Source: an uncultured bacterium (GTDB taxonomy: Bacteria; Omnitrophota; Omnitrophia; Omnitrophales; Abzuiibacteriaceae). Taken from it: 64,000 nucleotides of DNA. The notes beneath the pieces are model-generated. The model searched no databases, was not told where the DNA came from, and saw only the letters and a list, made by a program, of their open reading frames with translations. Shown here one piece after another: positions 26,576-35,932 of this stretch. The stretch is taken from the NCBI GenBank assembly GCA_964387845.1, contig CAYLXA010000005.1:128001-192000 (forward strand), in the 5' to 3' direction. The number at the start of each line of letters is the position of its first letter. Position 1 is the stretch's first letter. Position numbers and translations under genes: made by a program.

Positions 26576-26693
26576 ATCAGTTTTTCGCGAATTTCCTCTT
26601 TGCAGGGCTTTTATTTGTCCGCATAAAGGCTCTGTACATCCGAAGTTTTAAGCGTATAATTGCCCACATCGCCTTTCAACACAGGAGTTTGTC

Positions 26694-27287
26694 ATGAAAA
26701 GTGCTGCTTTTAAGTCATTTCTCCTTTTATCCCTATCTTTCTTTGCCGTTCAACCCGCTTTTGCCGCTCAATATAAAATTGATCCCGATCACACGACGGT
26801 ACAATTCGAAATCAAACATCTGCTCACCAACGTGCGCGGCCGGTTCAATCATTTCAGCGGAAGTTTCACTTATGAAGCCGGTAAGCCTGAAACCTGGAAT
26901 GCCAATGTTAACATTCAGGCCGAAAGCATCGATACGAACGTTTCGGCGCGCGACAAGCATTTGCGGTCCGAAGACTTCGTCGATGTTGAAAAATTTCCGA
27001 TATTGAAATTTGAAAGCACAGGTGTTTCGGATGCGGGTGAATCGAGTTTTAAGCTGCAGGGCAATTTAACGATTCATGGCGTGACGAAACCCGTGACATT
27101 TGATGCCGAAATTTTAGGGACCGCAAAAGATCCTTGGGGTAATACATTTGCAAGTTTTACGGCTACGGCCAAGATTAACCGCAAAGATTTCGGGTTGACT
27201 TGGAATCAGGCCGTGGAAACAGGCGGATTCCTGGTTGGGGACGAAGTGACCATCATGCTGGAAGTGGCGGGATTACTTCAAGCGTAA
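26694..27287 (+). CDS. YceI-family periplasmic protein
   Basis: signal peptide + YKIDPDHTTVQFEIKHLLTNVRGRFNHFSGS. Confidence 0.8.
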   Translation: MKSAAFKSFLLLSLSFFAVQPAFAAQYKIDPDHTTVQFEIKHLLTNVRGRFNHFSGSFTYEAGKPETWNANVNIQAESIDTNVSARDKHLRSEDFVDVEKFPILKFESTGVSDAGESSFKLQGNLTIHGVTKPVTFDAEILGTAKDPWGNTFASFTATAKINRKDFGLTWNQAVETGGFLVGDEVTIMLEVAGLLQA

Positions 27288-27348: not shown

Positions 27349-27606
27349 GTGGAAAAGAAGAATAGCAAAAAGAAAGCATTGTTGGCGGCGTCCATCGCAG
27401 GCTTAATTGCGGTTGCAGGCGCGGTGTTGCCGGCATCAGTTGCTTATGCGGAAGATGTAAAATGTTCAGGCGTCAATGCTTGCAAGGGCAATGGCGATTG
27501 CGGCGGCGCGGGAAGTTCTTGTGCTGGTTCTAATGCCTGCAAAGGCCAGGGCTGGATTTCGGTTTCTGAGAAGGCCTGCAAGCAGCTCGGCGGAACAGTG
27601 GCTTAA
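27349..27606 (+). CDS. bufferin-like RiPP precursor (Sec signal peptide + 6-Cys core, DUF2282-like)
   Basis: GTG start with AGGAGGAG RBS; signal peptide ...ASVAYA; core KCSGVNACKGNGDCGGAGSSCAGSNACKGQGWISVSEKACKQLGG. Confidence 0.65.
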   Translation: MEKKNSKKKALLAASIAGLIAVAGAVLPASVAYAEDVKCSGVNACKGNGDCGGAGSSCAGSNACKGQGWISVSEKACKQLGGTVA

Positions 27607-27662
27607 TAGCTGTGCCTTGAGTTGGTTTGTTGAAATACCGTGAAGCGTGACTGGAAAATGCA

Positions 27663-29381
27663 ATGAGCAAGATCACAAGCCGCGGCGTCGGAGTCGGTTT
27701 AAGAAAAGAGCACTACCCATCGATTCTTGAAAAATGGCCGCCCATGGATTGGTTTGAGGCCATTTCCGAGAATTACATGGATACGGGCGGCCGGCCGCTT
27801 GCTGCTTTGGAAAAAGTTCGTGCGCATTATCCCGTCGCGCTTCACGGTACTTCGATGTCGCTTGGCTCTACCGATCCTTTCCATCCCGATTATTTGCCCC
27901 GTCTGAAAAAATTAATCGATCGCATCGATCCTTTTATTGTTTCGGACCACCTTTGCTGGTCCGGCGTCGACAAAAACCACCTTTACGACTTACTGCCGCT
28001 TCCGTTTACCGAAGAGGCCATCCGGCACTTGGTTTCGCGCATTCAGCAGGTCCAGGAATATTTGGGGCGCTCCATCCTGATTGAAAATGTTTCGACTTAC
28101 ATCACTTTCAAGAACTCCGAAATCAGCGAATGGGAATTTATTTCCGAAATTTCAAAGCGTTCAGGATGCGGCATTCTGCTTGATCTCAACAACATTTATG
28201 TCAATTCCGTTAATCACCATTTTGACCCTTTCGACTATATTCAAAACATTCCAACCGAAGCCGTCGGTCAGTTTCATTTGGCGGGGCACACGGATATGGG
28301 AAAATATTTATTTGATACACACAGCGGTGCCGTGATTGACCGGGTTTGGGATCTGTACCGGAAAGCACTTGAGCGATTCGGACAAGTTTCAACCTTAATC
28401 GAGTGGGACGCCGAAATCCCGAGTTTCGAGAAGTTATCCGAAGAAGCCGCGAAAGCGCGGAATGTTTACAAAGAGTTTCCAGCCGTTGTTGCGAGGCATG
28501 AACCAAGCGGCGCCGAAGCAATCTCTGAATCGCAGATTGCTTCGACATCAACTTTGGAAACATCTCGCAATGACCGCAAAATTTTACTTTCCGAAATTCA
28601 AAAAAAATTCAGGCCCCGAATCCAGCCAAAGCGCCAGGCATTTGATCCTGCCGGCGAAGTTTTGAATCCCCAGGGCGGCGATCCGGGCGAAGTGCGCCTT
28701 GATGTTTACTCAAACGGTTATGTTGCGAGGTTCCAGGAGTCGCTCTCAGAAGTGTTCGAAGCTGTACACGCAGTCTTGGGCGATAGCGCATTCTATGATT
28801 TGGCGAGCGAATACACATTTCATTATCCGTCGATGCATTACAATTTAAATTTAGTCGGCTGTCATTTTCCGGATTTTTTAAAAACGCACCCGCTTTCAAA
28901 AAAAGTTCCTTTTTTGGCTGATTTGGCGCAGCTCGAGTGGCAAATTTCAGCGGCTTTTCATGCCTACGATATCGAGCCGATCAATCCGGCGCAGCTTGCG
29001 TCGATTCCGGCGGAGGAGTGGGAAGATCTGAGGGTGACTTTTCAGCCGTCGGTTTCGCTGCTTTCGTCGACATGGCCCGTGCTCGATATTTGGCTGAAAC
29101 GGCATGAGCGCGCAGAGCGAGTCAATATCGACTTAGAAAACAGGCCTCAACATGTATTAATCGGGCGCCGCGAACTTCAAGTCCGGTGCGAATTTTTGGA
29201 TTCACTCCAGTTTCACTTAATCAAAGGACTTTTAAACGGCCAAACGCTGGGCGAGGTATGCGGTGAGTTGGCGGATTTGGTTGAGGATGAAACCGAAATT
29301 CCCATAACCGATTGGTTTCAGCGCTGGGTCCGGGATCAAATGATTGTTCGCTGCGAATCTGCACGTCAAGCATCTTTGTAA
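27663..29381 (+). CDS. fused MNIO (DUF692/MbnB-like TIM-barrel) - DUF2063 partner-domain protein
   Basis: N-terminal ~290 aa matches DUF692 (ISENYMDTGG, HLCWSG, metal-ligand-rich GQFHLAGH); C-terminal ~280 aa DUF2063-like; directly downstream of Cys-rich precursor. Confidence 0.75.
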   Translation: MSKITSRGVGVGLRKEHYPSILEKWPPMDWFEAISENYMDTGGRPLAALEKVRAHYPVALHGTSMSLGSTDPFHPDYLPRLKKLIDRIDPFIVSDHLCWSGVDKNHLYDLLPLPFTEEAIRHLVSRIQQVQEYLGRSILIENVSTYITFKNSEISEWEFISEISKRSGCGILLDLNNIYVNSVNHHFDPFDYIQNIPTEAVGQFHLAGHTDMGKYLFDTHSGAVIDRVWDLYRKALERFGQVSTLIEWDAEIPSFEKLSEEAAKARNVYKEFPAVVARHEPSGAEAISESQIASTSTLETSRNDRKILLSEIQKKFRPRIQPKRQAFDPAGEVLNPQGGDPGEVRLDVYSNGYVARFQESLSEVFEAVHAVLGDSAFYDLASEYTFHYPSMHYNLNLVGCHFPDFLKTHPLSKKVPFLADLAQLEWQISAAFHAYDIEPINPAQLASIPAEEWEDLRVTFQPSVSLLSSTWPVLDIWLKRHERAERVNIDLENRPQHVLIGRRELQVRCEFLDSLQFHLIKGLLNGQTLGEVCGELADLVEDETEIPITDWFQRWVRDQMIVRCESARQASL

Positions 29382-29517
29382 GTTATTTTACCATAATAGT
29401 TTATATAAATTCCATTGGTCGCCCATTGACGGCACTGTTTTTACTGGTTATTATTATCAGGTCAGTTTCGGAATCAATCTTTGATTCAATTCGAGCGAGT
29501 TTATCAGGAGGAAAAAG

Positions 29518-29817
29518 ATGAAAAAGTTTTTTGCAGTGTTTGCAGTTTTGTTTTTGGCGGTTTTTGTGTTTTCAAGCCCGGCACTTCTTATTGCCGAGGA
29601 AGCAGCTCAACCGGCAGCTCCGGAAGAGCCTGTTGTTGAGCCTGCTGTAGCCGAACCCGCGGATGCATTGGTGGATGAAATGGATTCGGAAGAGTATTTT
29701 GATGAAGCCAAGGTTCTTCGTGATGCAGCGGCAAAGCTGAAAGGAATGGCGGGCGATGCGGAAGCTCAAAAGTTAGCCGGCCAGCTCGAAGAATTAGCGT
29801 CTGATTACGAATATTAA
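29518..29817 (+). CDS. small secreted acidic protein, hypothetical
   Basis: signal peptide MKKFFAVFAVLFLAVFVFSSPALLIA; Glu/Ala/Pro-rich. Confidence 0.4.
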   Translation: MKKFFAVFAVLFLAVFVFSSPALLIAEEAAQPAAPEEPVVEPAVAEPADALVDEMDSEEYFDEAKVLRDAAAKLKGMAGDAEAQKLAGQLEELASDYEY

Positions 29818-29887
29818 TCGATTGTAGTTTGTTCACCAAAAAGGCCAGCAGCTGAACACTGCTGGCCTTTTTTTCTCAGGGAAGTTC

Positions 29888-32026
29888 ATGCCGTCTCACT
29901 CACAAAAGTCTCCCAATCATCTGATCCGGGAAAAAAGTCCCTATCTTTTGCAGCACGCCTATAATCCGGTCCATTGGTATCCGTGGGGCGGGGAAGCTTT
30001 TCAAAAATCCAAACTCGAAGACAAGCCCATCTTTCTTTCGATCGGATACTCAACCTGCCACTGGTGCCACGTAATGGAAGAAGAATCTTTCGAGAATCAA
30101 GCGGTCGCGGATATCCTGAACGAATATTTTGTATCGATCAAAGTGGACCGGGAAGAGCGGCCGGACGTGGACGGTATTTATATGAAAGCTGTCATGGCCA
30201 TGACCGGCTCAGGCGGTTGGCCGATGAGTGTTTTTCTGACACCGGATTTAGAACCTTTTTACGGCGGCACATATTTTCCGCCGGAAAGCCGCTACGGGCG
30301 TCCGGGATTCCTTACCATCTTGAATGCGATTGCGGATAAATGGAAAACCGAGAAAGGTTCTATGACAAGCGCCGGCAAAGAATTAGCCGGAGCGCTTCGG
30401 GCCGATTCGGAAAACGAGCCCGGTCAAAAAGCCGCATTGGATCAAAAGCTGCTTTCGGTTGCTTTTCATCAATTGGAATCCCAATATGACGGAGCCTTGG
30501 GCGGATTCGGCGGAGCACCGAAATTTCCGCGAAGCCACGTTATGTCTTACTTGTTCCGGTTTTGGAAACGCTCAGGGGAATCCGTGGCACTTGATATGTC
30601 GCTTCAAACGCTGCGTGAAATGGCGAAGGGCGGCATGTATGACCATGTGGGCGGCGGATTTCACCGATACTCCACCGATGCCAAATGGCACATCCCGCAT
30701 TTCGAAAAAATGCTTTACGACCAGGCGCTGATCGCCAAAACCTATCTCGAAGCATATCAGGCCACGCATGAGGAAAACTTTGCAAATGTAGCAGGGGAAA
30801 TATTTAATTATGTGCTCCATGATATGAAAGCCCCCGAGGGGGCATTCTATTCTGCCGAAGATGCCGATAGCTTGCCGGAGAAAGACTCAGCCAAAAAAAC
30901 AGAAGGCGCATTTTATATTTGGAGCGAGAAAGAAATTTTGGCGCTCTTGGGTGAAAAAAACGGAAAGTTTTTTAATTTCATCTTTGGTGTTGAACCGGAC
31001 GGCAATGCCGAAACCGATCCTCATGGTGAGTTTACCGGAAAGAATATTTTGTACTTAGCGCATTCGATTGATGAAGCGGCAAAAAATTTTAATAAAACCG
31101 AAGAAGAAATCAAAAAAATCGTCCGAGAATCAAAAACCATCTTACTAAAAGCGCGCGCAGAACGCCCAAAACCGCATCTGGATGACAAAATTTTGGCCGA
31201 CTGGAACGGCTTGATGATTTCAGCGCTCGCATCGGGTTCGCTCATTCTTCGAAATCCGTGCTATGCGGAGGTTGCTTGCAAAGCCGCCGATTTCATTATG
31301 GAGAAAATGACGATTCACGGGAAACTCATGCACCGTTACCGCGACGGAGAAGTGGCAATCGAAGGATTTCTGGATGATTATGCGTTTTTCTCGAACGCGC
31401 TTTTGGATCTTTATGAGGCGACTTTTCAGGTGCGGTATTTGAGTGAAGCGGCTCGGTTGGTTGAAAGAATGAATGCGCTTTTTTGGGATGGAAAAAGCGG
31501 AGGCTACTTTTTCTCAAGCTCTGGCGGCGAAAAATTGATTGCTCGAAGTAAGGAAATTTATGATGGCGCGATTCCTTCGGGGAATTCCGTAGCGGCAATG
31601 GTATTGGTTCGGCTTAACCGGATGACGGCAAAATCCGAATACGAAAAGCGTGCCGGTGAATTATTCGACGCGTTTTCTGTTCAGCTTGCGCAGTTTCCGG
31701 CCGGATATCCGCAGATGATGATGGCGTTTGATTTTTCGCAAGGCCCCTCGCGCGAAATCGTGATCGCGGGCAATCAAAAAGCCGAAGAGGTCCGGAAAAT
31801 AGCCGATATAATATTCAGCACATTTTCGCCGAACCAAGTAGTTCTGTTTCATCCTCAGGACGGAAGTGAGGCAGAAGCGGTTGAGCAGTTGGCACCGTTC
31901 GTGAAGAGCCAAGGACTTGTGAGCGGCAAACCGGCGGTTTATATTTGTGAGAATTACACATGTTCGCTTCCTGTGACGGATGTGTCAGATTTAAAAAAGA
32001 AATTGGGAGTTAGTGGAAATGCCTGA
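29888..32026 (+). CDS. thioredoxin-domain protein of the DUF255/YyaL family (N-terminal Trx-like CxxC + six-hairpin glycosidase-like domain)
   Basis: [20 protein letters not shown] motif, 712 aa. Confidence 0.8.
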
Positions 32027-33218
32027 AAGTTTTCTTGAAATCCTAAGTATTTATCTGCTTGGGCTTGGACTCAATCTGACGCCCTGCGTGTATCCCATGC
32101 TATCGATTACTGTTTCTCTATTTGGACGGCAAACGGGCGGGCACCATCATCACTCAGCTTTGAAGGCAATTGTCTATGTGCTTGGGATGGCAGCCATGTA
32201 CAGTGCGCTTGGCGTGACAGCAGCACTGACGGGCGGATTTTTCGGTTCATTTCTGCAAAATACTTATATCTTGCTAGCGATCGGTGCCGTTTTGGTGGCG
32301 CTTGCGCTCAGCATGTTCGGCTTTTATCAAATTAATGCACCCTCCTGGATTCTGCAGAGAATCGGCGCTCCCAAACACGTGGGGCTCATCGGCATTTTTT
32401 TCTCTGGGCTGATGGTGGGTATTATCGCCGCGCCTTGCGTGGGGCCGCCCGTCATCGCACTCTTGGCGATTGTGGGTTCGCGTGGCGAACCGCTTTATGG
32501 ATTCCTCGTATTCTTTGTTCTATCCATCGGGCTCGGAACACCCTATTTAATATTGGGAACATTCTCCGAGCTGCTCCGAAAAATCCCAAAATCAGGGGTT
32601 TGGCTTATTTGGATGGAACGTTTTTTTGGTGTCGTACTTCTTGCGATGGCGGCGTATTATTTCTTAATTGCACTAAATCCTACGCTTCTCAAATGGCTTC
32701 CGACCGCGGCACTTGTGCTGGGCGGTATTTATCTCGGATTTCTAGAAACATCGGGAAATCAAAAAATAAAATTCAATCGCTTTAAGAAAACAGTAGGTGT
32801 TATTGCAGTCGTTGTTGGTTTGGCACTTCCTTTTACAGGGCCGAAGCAAAATGTGGTTTGGGAAGCGTATTCAGCTGAAAAGATAGAAACCGCGAAAGCC
32901 GCGGGGCAGCCTGTTATCTTTGATTTCTATGCCGATTGGTGCATTCCTTGTCATGAGCTGGACCGGTTTACTTATTCAGACCCCGAAGTTATCAAAGCGC
33001 TCGATCATTTTCTCCGCATCAAAGTTGATTTGACTGACACGGATACACCTGAAGCCGAAGAGCTGACGGATAAGTACGAGATTGTCGGCGTCCCCACCAT
33101 CGTTTTCCTGGATAAGCAGGGAAATGAAGTCGAGGAGGCCCGCACAAACGGCTTCATTGATGCCCAGGAAATGCTCGAAATCCTGAATTCGCCTTCTTTT
33201 GTAGAACCAACTTCCTAA
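32013..33218 (+). CDS. DsbD/CcdA-family thiol:disulfide transporter with C-terminal thioredoxin domain
   Basis: 8 TM CcdA-like core with conserved Cys + C-terminal [12 protein letters not shown] thioredoxin motif. Confidence 0.75.
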
Positions 33219-33355: not shown

Positions 33356-33592
33356 ATGAAAGTATTGTCGCTTAAATTAAGAGATGATGTGTTTGACGAA
33401 GTCGAGCAAGTAATCAAAAAAAACAATATGCCGCGTAACGCGTATATTAATGAGGCGCTCATTTTTTTCAATCAGTTAAACAAGCGGAAATGGATGAGAA
33501 AAAAACTGCAGAAGGAGTCTCTCTTGACGCGGGGGGTTTCCATGGAAGTACTGCGTGAAATGGAAAAGTTAGAAGACAGCTTGGATTCATGA
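33356..33592 (+). CDS. MazE/RHH-type antitoxin candidate
   Basis: 78 aa, upstream of and 4 nt from mazF-like gene. Confidence 0.5.
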   Translation: MKVLSLKLRDDVFDEVEQVIKKNNMPRNAYINEALIFFNQLNKRKWMRKKLQKESLLTRGVSMEVLREMEKLEDSLDS

Positions 33593-33596
33593 AATC

Positions 33597-33938
33597 ATGA
33601 AAATCGAAAAGTTTCATATCTACTTAACCGATCTTAATCCGCAAATCGGGACCGAGCCCGGAAAAATCAGGCCGGTCACCGTGATTCAAACCAACCTGTT
33701 AAACAATACCCATCCCAGCACGATTATTTGCCCGATGACGACCAAAGTGGTCAGGCAGGCAAGGATTTTAAGGGTTCATGTTTCTTCTGCTGAATCGGGA
33801 CTGAACACAGCTTCTGATATCCTGGTAGATCAAATTCGGGCTATTGATAATCGGCGGCTTAGGAAACATATTGGAAAGCTGACCTCCCCGCAGGCGAAAG
33901 AGCTTCTGGCCAATCTTAAACTTTTAATCTTAGAATAA
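33597..33938 (+). CDS. MazF/PemK-family endoribonuclease toxin
   Basis: IYLTDLNPQIGTEPGKIRPVTVIQTN...ICPMTT pattern. Confidence 0.8.
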   Translation: MKIEKFHIYLTDLNPQIGTEPGKIRPVTVIQTNLLNNTHPSTIICPMTTKVVRQARILRVHVSSAESGLNTASDILVDQIRAIDNRRLRKHIGKLTSPQAKELLANLKLLILE

Positions 33939-33988: not shown

Positions 33989-35932
33989 ATGTCCATTACG
34001 CAATCAACCACGGCCAAACTCCGAATTATTAGTTTCGAAAGCCGTCTGTCCTCAACCATGACAGAGCTGATCCACAAAGCCGGCCATGCGCCTATCGCGG
34101 CGCCGGCACTGCAGGAAATCCCGCTCGAGAAAAATCCCGAAGCGTTTCAATTAGGGGAGCGGCTCCTCAATCACGAAATTGATTTCATGATCTTTCTAAC
34201 GGGTGTCGGCACAAAAGCGCTCTTTGAAACCTTGAGAACCCGTTACAACATGAAACAAATCATTGCGGCCTTGAATCAAACCATCATTGTTGCGCGAGGC
34301 CCGAAGCCGGTTCAGGTTTTGCAAGATTACGGAATCATGGTTTCGGTCCTGGTGCCGGAGCCCAATACCTGGCGCGACATTTTGGAAGTTTTAGACTCAG
34401 ACGAGCATAGCATTTCTCTGATGAAAAGGACTGTCGCGGTCCAAGAATACGGAGAGGAAAATCCGCAGCTCATCGCCGGATTGGTGGAGCGCGGCGCGCG
34501 CGTAATCCGGGTTCCCGTCTACCGGTGGGCGCTGCCGGATGATACCAAGCCGCTAAAAAATGCGATTCGGACCATCATCGAACACAACGCGGACGCGGTG
34601 CTCTTCACAAACTCGGTGCAGGTCAATCATTTATTTCGGCTGGCCTCGGAAATAGGCCTTGAAAGGCATTTAAAACAGGCCTTTGCCAAAATGGTGATCG
34701 CTTCCGTCGGCCCTCATTGTTCTCAAGCGATTGTTGAGCATGGGCTTTCCGTTGATATCCAGCCCGAGACGCCGAACATGGAGTCGCTCGTCTTGGAAGT
34801 GTCAAAACGCGCGAAGGCCATTTGGGATGAGAAGCAATTACATGAAAGCAAACTCATGGATTCCGGCATCCGAATGGAATCAGAAAGAGTCCAAAAAAAG
34901 GAATTGGTGGAAAGCGTATTTTTAAAAGCGTGCCGGCTTGAAAAAACATCTCACACACCGGTTTGGCTGATGCGCCAAGCAGGGCGCTACATGAAAGAAT
35001 ACCGGCAGCTGCGTGAAAAAATGCCCTTTCTGGAACTTTGCAAAAACCCATCACTGTGTGCAGAGGTTACAATTCATGCCCAGGAAACCATCGGAGCGGA
35101 CGCTGCTATTATTTTTTCGGATATCCTGCTTTTGGTACAGCCGTTTGGCCTGGGCCTTGAGTATTCGCGGGAAGACGGGCCCGTGATTGACAATGTTATT
35201 CACCGCGGATCGCGCATCGATGAACTTCCCGAGATCGAACCGGCCGATTCGCTCGGATTTGTATATGAAGCGATCCGAAAAACGCGCGAGAATCTGCAGT
35301 CCAACATTCCGCTGATCGGGTTTGCCGGAGCACCGTTTACGCTGGCGTCTTACATGATTGAAGGCGGCTCATCAAAAGATTTTAGGCGCACAAAGCTATT
35401 CATGTATTCCGATGAAGGCCAGTGGCGCGCACTGATGGAAAAATTGGCACGCGCCGTATCGAAACATCTCAAGGCGCAAATTGAGGCCGGTGCTCAGGCG
35501 GTTCAGCTTTTTGACAGCTGGGTCGGTTGTTTAGGCCCCGGCGATTATAAAAAATATGTACAGCCGTACTCCAAACAGGTATTTGATTCGCTAGAAGGGC
35601 TCGCGCCGACCATTCACTTTGGAACCAACACCGGAAATTTGTTGGAGCTCATGAAAGAGGCGGGCGGTGATGTAATCGGCGTCGATTTTCGGATCACGTT
35701 GGACCAGGCTTGGCGAAGAGTGGGATATTCAAAAGCAGTGCAAGGAAATTTGGATCCGCTGGTGCTGCAGTCATCGATTCCTTATATTAATCAGCGTGCA
35801 CAGGAAATTATCAAGCAGGCCTCCGGACGCCCAGGGCACATTTTCAATTTGGGCCACGGTGTTTTGCCGGATACGCCTGTTGAAAATGTGATCGCGTTGG
35901 TGGATATGGTCCACGAACTCAGTGGTAAGTGA
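33989..35932 (+). CDS. hemE: bifunctional uroporphyrinogen-III synthase (HemD) / uroporphyrinogen decarboxylase (HemE) fusion
   Basis: N-terminal ~250 aa HemD-like; C-terminal HemE with VWLMRQAGRYMKEYR...IIFSDIL; stop codon lies inside heptamer repeat. Confidence 0.85.
   Translation: MSITQSTTAKLRIISFESRLSSTMTELIHKAGHAPIAAPALQEIPLEKNPEAFQLGERLLNHEIDFMIFLTGVGTKALFETLRTRYNMKQIIAALNQTIIVARGPKPVQVLQDYGIMVSVLVPEPNTWRDILEVLDSDEHSISLMKRTVAVQEYGEENPQLIAGLVERGARVIRVPVYRWALPDDTKPLKNAIRTIIEHNADAVLFTNSVQVNHLFRLASEIGLERHLKQAFAKMVIASVGPHCSQAIVEHGLSVDIQPETPNMESLVLEVSKRAKAIWDEKQLHESKLMDSGIRMESERVQKKELVESVFLKACRLEKTSHTPVWLMRQAGRYMKEYRQLREKMPFLELCKNPSLCAEVTIHAQETIGADAAIIFSDILLLVQPFGLGLEYSREDGPVIDNVIHRGSRIDELPEIEPADSLGFVYEAIRKTRENLQSNIPLIGFAGAPFTLASYMIEGGSSKDFRRTKLFMYSDEGQWRALMEKLARAVSKHLKAQIEAGAQAVQLFDSWVGCLGPGDYKKYVQPYSKQVFDSLEGLAPTIHFGTNTGNLLELMKEAGGDVIGVDFRITLDQAWRRVGYSKAVQGNLDPLVLQSSIPYINQRAQEIIKQASGRPGHIFNLGHGVLPDTPVENVIALVDMVHELSGK

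Follow-up and report, generated by a model that had tools for sequence, protein, structure and literature searches.

We analysed a 64,000-nucleotide stretch of DNA from an uncultured Omnitrophota-type bacterium (the window: positions 128,001 to 192,000 of contig CAYLXA010000005.1). We propose that three adjacent genes on its forward strand, yceI, bufA2, and bufBC, very probably form a biosynthetic operon for a bufferin-2 (Buf2, or "captophorin"). Bufferins (captophorins) are modified peptides that bind copper, and they make up a very large class that was recognised only recently. A first-pass annotation of the window had described a bufferin-type MNIO locus for a RiPP (a peptide made on the ribosome and then modified post-translationally), and this is borne out by the curated models for the precursor (BufA2) and the maturase (BufB), both of which match above their cutoffs. 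Our proposal draws directly on the gene content, the family memberships, the domain architecture, the catalytic residues, and the conservation of both the architecture and the linkage to yceI. The locus is an ordinary member of the bufferin-2 family that current curated models can annotate automatically, and it offers no new chemistry. The fused maturase and the YceI linkage are real, lineage-wide variants, and we found neither of them described in the searchable literature.

The precursor

The two key open reading frames (ORFs) are where the first-pass annotation had put them: an 85-aa precursor at 27349-27606 and a 572-aa enzyme at 27663-29381, both on the forward strand. The cysteine motifs that it quoted also match the translation. 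The precursor gene starts with GTG, with an AGGAGG Shine-Dalgarno sequence 5 nt upstream, and it encodes a putatively secreted peptide with six cysteines whose sequence is MEKKNSKKKALLAASIAGLIAVAGAVLPASVAYA (the signal part) followed by EDVKCSGVNACKGNGDCGGAGSSCAGSNACKGQGWISVSEKACKQLGGTVA (the core part). On inspection, the N-terminus has a lysine-rich n-region, a hydrophobic core, and A-Y-A followed by E35, so it resembles a Sec signal peptide (residues 1-34, 27349-27450). The core peptide of 51 amino acids (27451-27606, including the stop codon) has the pattern C-x-G-x-N-x-C-K-G-x-G-x-C-G-G...C-A-G-x-N-x-C-K-G-x-G...C...GG, with the cysteines at residues 39, 45, 51, 58, 64, and 77.

The precursor had been described as of the DUF2282 type, and this did not hold: in the Pfam search, DUF2282 (BufA1) had no match at E ≤ 0.01, and there was only a sub-threshold hit to DUF7640. 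Instead, the NCBIfam model for Cu_RiPP_BufA2 (NF050166) scores 72.2 bits, above its cutoff of 60, with residues 11-84 aligning to positions 3-78 of the 79 in the model. BufA1 has four conserved cysteines, versus the six in this precursor, and we rule out that identity. In an alignment of 59 homologous precursors, all six cysteine columns are at least 80% conserved, and the core motif is kept as well. Judging from these comparisons, the precursor is a BufA2 (Buf_6/12Cys) and not a BufA1.

A fused maturase

The 572-aa protein has an N-terminal MNIO and a C-terminal DUF2063/RRE partner (RRE, RiPP recognition element), and the HMM searches agree with the first-pass annotation on both halves. The MNIO (BufB) TIM-barrel domain, residues 8-268 (27684-28466), matches PF05114 (MbnB_TglH_ChrH) with E = 5.6e-109. 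The N-terminal half scores 375 bits against the NCBIfam model MNIO_BufB, whose cutoff is 310. The PME1-type partner (BufC: DUF2063 plus an RRE-like domain) spans residues 309-572 (28587-29381, including the stop codon). Within it, residues 313-406 match PF09836 (DUF2063) with 52.5 bits, versus a cutoff of 27.2. The C-terminal half also aligns with the NCBIfam HvfC model, collinearly and over the full model length (residues 343-561), but below threshold. A profile built from the C-terminal halves reaches 3dee by sequence (E = 0.002, also collinear). The N-terminal half has the MNIO fold, and the C-terminal half has a DUF2063 domain followed by an RRE-like domain. The AlphaFold2 model of the entire protein is confident (pLDDT, the predicted local distance difference test, is 90.2, and pTM, the predicted template modelling score, is 0.87), with a disordered linker between the domains (residues 279-303, 28497-28571; pLDDT < 50). 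The linker differs in sequence and in length among homologues, and the domains on either side of it are well conserved. The enzyme is a true single-chain BufB-BufC.

In an alignment of 61 homologues, H61, H96, E141, D174, N177, H205, D218, H220, and E247/D249 are invariant. These residues line up with the metal sites of MbnB and of 3bww in a sequence alignment. 3bww is a homologue of HvfB and the nearest solved structure, at only about 35% identity to the clade. N177, D218, and H220 are the equivalents of N175, D242, and H244 of HvfB, which were reported to be essential (bioRxiv 10.64898/2026.07.17.739211).

The signal peptide of the precursor may also matter to this enzyme. A motif in its h-region, A-A-S-(I/V)-A-G-L-(I/L)-A (residues 10-20, 27376-27408), is conserved in the alignment of 59 sequences. 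A similar motif, L-A-x-A-A-L-A-G-L-L-A, is found in unrelated oxazolin-like precursors of alphaproteobacterial clusters with fused enzymes (L044, L053, L055, L066, and L073, among the related loci described below). The shared motif is a hint that a portion of the Sec signal also serves as a leader that PME1 recognises. In an overexpressed system, Buf1 could do without its signal peptide.

The fusion is typical of the lineage

We searched 5.8 billion protein clusters for homologues of the fused protein and considered the best 120 matches. Each of them is 537-629 aa long, contains both Pfam domains, and aligns to 92-100% of the query's length at 48-73% identity. Among their source names is [quoted passage not shown]. 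Because all 120 share the architecture, and because the in-frame linker varies in length, we rule out a frameshift or assembly artefact as the origin of the fusion. Nor does the fusion set this locus apart, as had been suggested, since a large Omnitrophota-type clade has it as its standard form.

We also compared the ORFs of 80 related genomic loci (labelled L plus a number) with the proteins of the window. BufB and BufC are encoded by one ORF in 36 of these loci and by separate genes in the other 44. In a neighbour-joining tree of the N-terminal halves, built without bootstrap, the fused forms fall in three places: a large clade that includes the window and is made up of bins from Omnitrophota and "uncultured Planctomycetia"; one Terriglobales sequence; and a separate alphaproteobacterial group, at about 35% identity. 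The precursors in the alphaproteobacterial group are oxazolin-type peptides with EGKxGC/CK repeats, and L044 has a DoxX gene directly downstream. Since the fused forms occupy separate groups in the tree, the fusion has arisen at least twice, and by the same comparison the alphaproteobacterial fusion in oxazolin-like clusters is of independent origin. Judging by this distribution, the iron enzyme and its partner have been fused repeatedly in the course of evolution.

A sub-clade with split enzymes (L031, L037-L040, and L047, plus L036) nests within the large fused clade. Some split loci need just one mutation to become fused. In the Omnitrophota locus L031 (6844-6852), BufB and BufC share a reading frame and are separated by TGA and one further codon (3 nt) before ATG, so a single substitution would give a fused gene. 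This illustrates that fusion and fission interconvert easily.

BufB and BufC had been described as normally separate proteins, and this holds at the scale of the family. A search with the C-terminal half against 1.84 billion representatives at 50% identity gave 10,904 matches at E ≤ 1e-3, and just 3 of the best 150 are of fused length. One of the three is the window's own protein, which as a representative may cover much of the Omnitrophota-type clade. The remainder of the best 150 are stand-alone proteins, mostly of about 250-340 aa, with some shorter. By these counts, the fusion is a minority form across the partner family, yet it is typical of the Omnitrophota-type lineage and is not specific to this locus.

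In the searchable open-access literature, we came across no account of natural MNIO-PME1 fusions. MovX is a natural MNIO with a fused RRE and has been named as an exception to the two-protein rule (bioRxiv 10.64898/2026.07.17.739211). MovX, as cited, fuses the RRE domain only, whereas here the entire PME1 (DUF2063 plus RRE) is fused. In the literature on PME1 partners, these are described as narrow in size, and the core genes as occurring "in various combinations" (PMC12452194).

The upstream yceI gene and a probable operon

The gene upstream of the precursor (26694-27287, forward strand) encodes a YceI-family periplasmic protein of 197 aa with a signal peptide (PF04264, E = 8e-50). Its best matches by sequence in PDB are 1wub (TT1927b), PA0423, and E. 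coli YceI. An orthologue of this gene adjoins the precursor gene in 39 of the 52 BufA2 loci that have enough flanking sequence (these loci lie within L002-L074), and in none of the 20 loci that lack a BufA2-type precursor. The linkage is seen whether the enzyme is fused or split; it extends across Omnitrophota, Binatia, Thermodesulfobacteriota, Myxococcales, and Desulfurellales; and it persists in L041, where the order is rearranged to BufBC-BufA2-YceI. When we clustered the neighbouring ORFs across the 80 loci, independently of the window, the only widely recurring families were BufB/C (80 loci), the precursor (45 loci), and YceI (40 loci). YceI is probably a conserved accessory gene of this Buf2 subtype, and one that has gone undescribed: in the open-access literature, the sole link that we found between YceI and MNIO/DUF692 proteins is a supplementary remark on one biosynthetic gene cluster that contains YceI. 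Domains of the YceI type bind polyisoprenoids and ubiquinone-8, and proteins that contain them have been suggested to play a redox role (PMC8981238). It is a reasonable idea that YceI acts as a quinone-linked accessory protein.

A promoter-like site, TGTACA-16-TATAAT, precedes yceI (26633-26660, forward strand) and is a candidate for the operon's promoter. It was found by a consensus scan and is a pattern match only (10 of 12 positions). The intergenic gaps are short, with 61 nt from yceI to bufA2 and 56 nt from bufA2 to bufBC, and we found no convincing terminator or structured RNA in either of them. An attenuator hairpin or other RNA element between bufA2 and bufBC was rejected, as there is no Rfam match and the predicted fold is no better than that of shuffled sequences (z = +1.2). 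The promoter-like site and the short gaps are consistent with a yceI-bufA2-bufBC operon.

Comparison with characterized systems

The founding bufferin-2 operon, buf2ABC of Caulobacter vibrioides, encodes a BufA2 with a Sec signal and six cysteines, along with BufB and BufC, and has no bufD (DoxX) (Leprevost et al. 2024, PMC11626156). Its product shows a mass shift of -18 Da: each of the four central cysteines loses 4 Da, and the outer pair is unmodified and is likely disulfide-bonded (PMC11626156). The product has an absorbance at 305 nm, and copper induces the operon (PMC11626156). The locus in the window resembles buf2ABC in having a six-cysteine precursor with an apparent Sec signal, a BufB-type MNIO, and a DUF2063-RRE partner, in that order, without DoxX. 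The two differ in that BufB and BufC form one chain here, with a disordered linker of about 25-35 residues; in that a yceI gene stands before the precursor and no regulator of the SigF/NrsF type is nearby; and in the host, which is an uncultured bacterium of the Omnitrophota type.

The first-pass annotation was right that the locus has no DoxX gene: we found none within 10 kb on either side (precomputed Pfam matches) and none in the entire window by jackhmmer seeded with the DoxX of L044. It had also presented the six cysteines and the lack of DoxX as distinguishing features. Both are the norm for Buf2, because the C. vibrioides operon has both (PMC11626156) and about 90% of Buf2 precursors have six cysteines (Antoine et al. 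2025, PMC12452194).

An engineered fusion of HvfB and HvfC, the oxazolin maturase of H. influenzae, is reported to be active and to give markedly more product than the co-expressed pair (July 2026 preprint, bioRxiv 10.64898/2026.07.17.739211). As in that fusion, the MNIO is N-terminal here and PME1 is C-terminal, so this topology has been shown to be workable. The engineered protein is artificial and linkerless and acts on a precursor with EGKCG repeats, whereas the protein in the window is natural, has a linker, and is paired with a BufA2 precursor. The MbnBC and TglHI heterodimers (for methanobactin and 3-thiaglutamate) are more different, as they have partners from other families (MbnC and TglI), precursors that lack a Sec signal, and other chemistry.

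Proposed function and alternatives

By homology to characterized bufferins, oxazolin, and fontiphorin, we infer the chemistry, the identity of the modified cysteines, the export, the binding of copper, and whatever role YceI may have. Single-chain BufBC in the cytoplasm would bind the precursor via its C-terminal PME1/RRE half. This half probably touches the core, and it may also touch the AAS(I/V)AGL(I/L)A motif in the signal peptide. The iron-dependent MNIO barrel at the N-terminus would use O2 to oxidise the central cysteines C45, C51, C58, and C64 by four electrons each, to give 5-thiooxazoles. Sec would then export the modified peptide, signal peptidase would cut after Ala34, and the outer cysteines C39 and C77 would form a disulfide. 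The 51-residue product is predicted to bind copper in the periplasm. The fusion would hard-wire an obligate 1:1 complex of BufB and BufC. It is plausible that the natural fusion is a way to enforce this stoichiometry, because the engineered HvfB-HvfC fusion outperforms the co-expressed pair.

Several points weigh against this assignment to bufferin-2. The signal peptide of the precursor was called by inspection only; the operon structure is drawn only from short gaps and one consensus match to a promoter; and the protein and its clade are known from sequence and model alone. The fused protein scores below the NCBIfam cutoffs for the HvfC family and for HvfB, so we do not consider it an oxazolin-type orthologue. 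For this group of enzymes, the assignment of thiooxazole versus oxazolone-thioamide is debated (PMC13097082). Copper-resistance genes, a sigma/anti-sigma pair, and DoxX are all absent from the window, so regulation by copper is only putative here.

A variant on the chemistry is that the fused enzyme makes another modification, either an oxazolone-thioamide or the product of some other MNIO reaction, and that the fusion marks a diverged subfamily. MNIOs catalyse many reactions, highly homologous MNIOs have been assigned either heterocycle, and the clade has only modest identity to 3bww. We consider this very improbable, because the enzyme scores above the curated BufB cutoff and the core of the precursor is a canonical BufA2, and because, within one clade that shares the type of precursor, split enzymes are interspersed with fused ones. 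PME1-dependent MNIOs broadly install 5-thiooxazoles and bind copper, and those tested so far all yield 5-thiooxazoles (PMC13097082). A different alternative keeps the operon and changes the role of the peptide: instead of buffering excess copper, it could supply or chaperone copper for cuproenzymes of the periplasm or membrane, such as heme-copper oxidase or Cu/Zn superoxide dismutase, or it could handle another metal. In 7-8 related loci (L003, L005, L017, and others), the bufferin cluster is directly followed downstream by COX3 and COX4_pro, the genes for cytochrome c oxidase subunits III and IV, and Cu/Zn superoxide dismutase is a neighbour in 5 loci. The operon in the window is surrounded by housekeeping genes (dnaG and rpoD, from precomputed Pfam matches), with no metal-stress regulator, and MerC-bufferin fusions point to the handling of other metals as well (PMC12452194). 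We think that such a role is unlikely, as these neighbours occur in only about 10% of the loci, and the characterized bufferins protect against copper excess and are copper-induced (PMC11626156).

Another possibility is that the downstream genes for a YyaL-like DUF255 protein (29888-32026, forward strand) and a DsbD-like protein (32013-33218, forward strand; both from Pfam) are functional parts of the cluster and control whether the exported peptide is in the thiol or the disulfide state, in place of DoxX. Both are on the same strand as the operon and within 0.5 kb of it, and a few related loci have DUF255 (3 of 80, such as L038 and L069), DsbD-like genes (4 of 80, such as L027-L029), or DsbA-like genes (5 loci). 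However, DUF255 and DsbD are missing from over 90% of the related loci. Also, three features lie between bufBC and the DUF255 gene: a promoter-like site from a consensus scan (29426-29454); an unrelated gene for a secreted and very acidic protein of 99 aa (29518-29817), which thus has its own promoter-like site upstream; and a strong intrinsic terminator of the textbook type, GGCCAGCAG-loop-CTGCTGGCC-TTTTTTT (29843-29874). Because of these features and the rarity of the genes in related loci, the proximity of DUF255 and DsbD to the operon is most likely incidental, and we regard their membership in the cluster as improbable. The thiol-disulfide genes that the first-pass annotation reported are indeed present, but they are not immediately downstream and they are not conserved neighbours.

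Within the bufferin-2 reading, we also propose, tentatively and with less than even confidence, that the Omnitrophota-type Buf2 clusters are a distinct and undescribed subtype. It would be defined by the natural fusion of the maturase to its partner and by a dedicated periplasmic YceI lipocalin. YceI could replace or complement DoxX, and so link the exported thiooxazole peptide, or its copper, to the redox chemistry of membrane quinones. If so, the fused enzyme would be a natural counterpart of the engineered HvfBC fusion, and its built-in stoichiometry would make it ready to use in work on structure and mechanism. As a source of leads, this locus is most useful for its natural fusion, which could serve as a biochemical tool, and for YceI, a candidate accessory protein. 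The natural fusions have the domain order that was recently engineered for higher activity, and they could be convenient for structures of the complex of enzyme, partner, and substrate. The YceI linkage is a testable lead on a tie between periplasmic bufferin peptides and quinone or redox chemistry.

Other neighbouring genes

In a few related Omnitrophota-type loci (L016, L019, and L022), DoxX lies just upstream of YceI, in the order DoxX-YceI-BufA2-BufBC; its usual place is after BufC. In L019 the order is DsbA-DoxX-YceI-BufA2-BufBC. After YceI, the next most recurrent families among the neighbours are extracytoplasmic function (ECF) sigma factors (12 loci), COX3 (8 loci), and COX4_pro (7 loci). 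Besides Cu/Zn superoxide dismutase and the DsbA-like proteins, sensor kinases with ETR1_N are found in 5 loci by the same clustering; these histidine kinases are of a copper-binding, ethylene-receptor-like type. Most of the minor recurrent neighbours are copper-related.

We rejected two further candidates for conserved members of the cluster. The 99-aa acidic ORF has a homologue in 0 of the 80 related loci. The gene downstream of the fused enzyme varies across the fused clade (COX3, LemA, aconitase, DUF3313, and others), so none qualifies as conserved.

Beyond the DsbD-like gene in the window, an ORF of 78 aa is followed by one for a PemK-family toxin of 113 aa (33356-33938). The pair resembles a type II toxin-antitoxin module and lies between the DsbD-like gene and the heme genes. 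The latter are joined in a 647-aa ORF (33989-35932) that contains, by precomputed Pfam matches, both HEM4 (uroporphyrinogen-III synthase) and URO-D (uroporphyrinogen decarboxylase) and is a fusion of two consecutive enzymes of the heme pathway.

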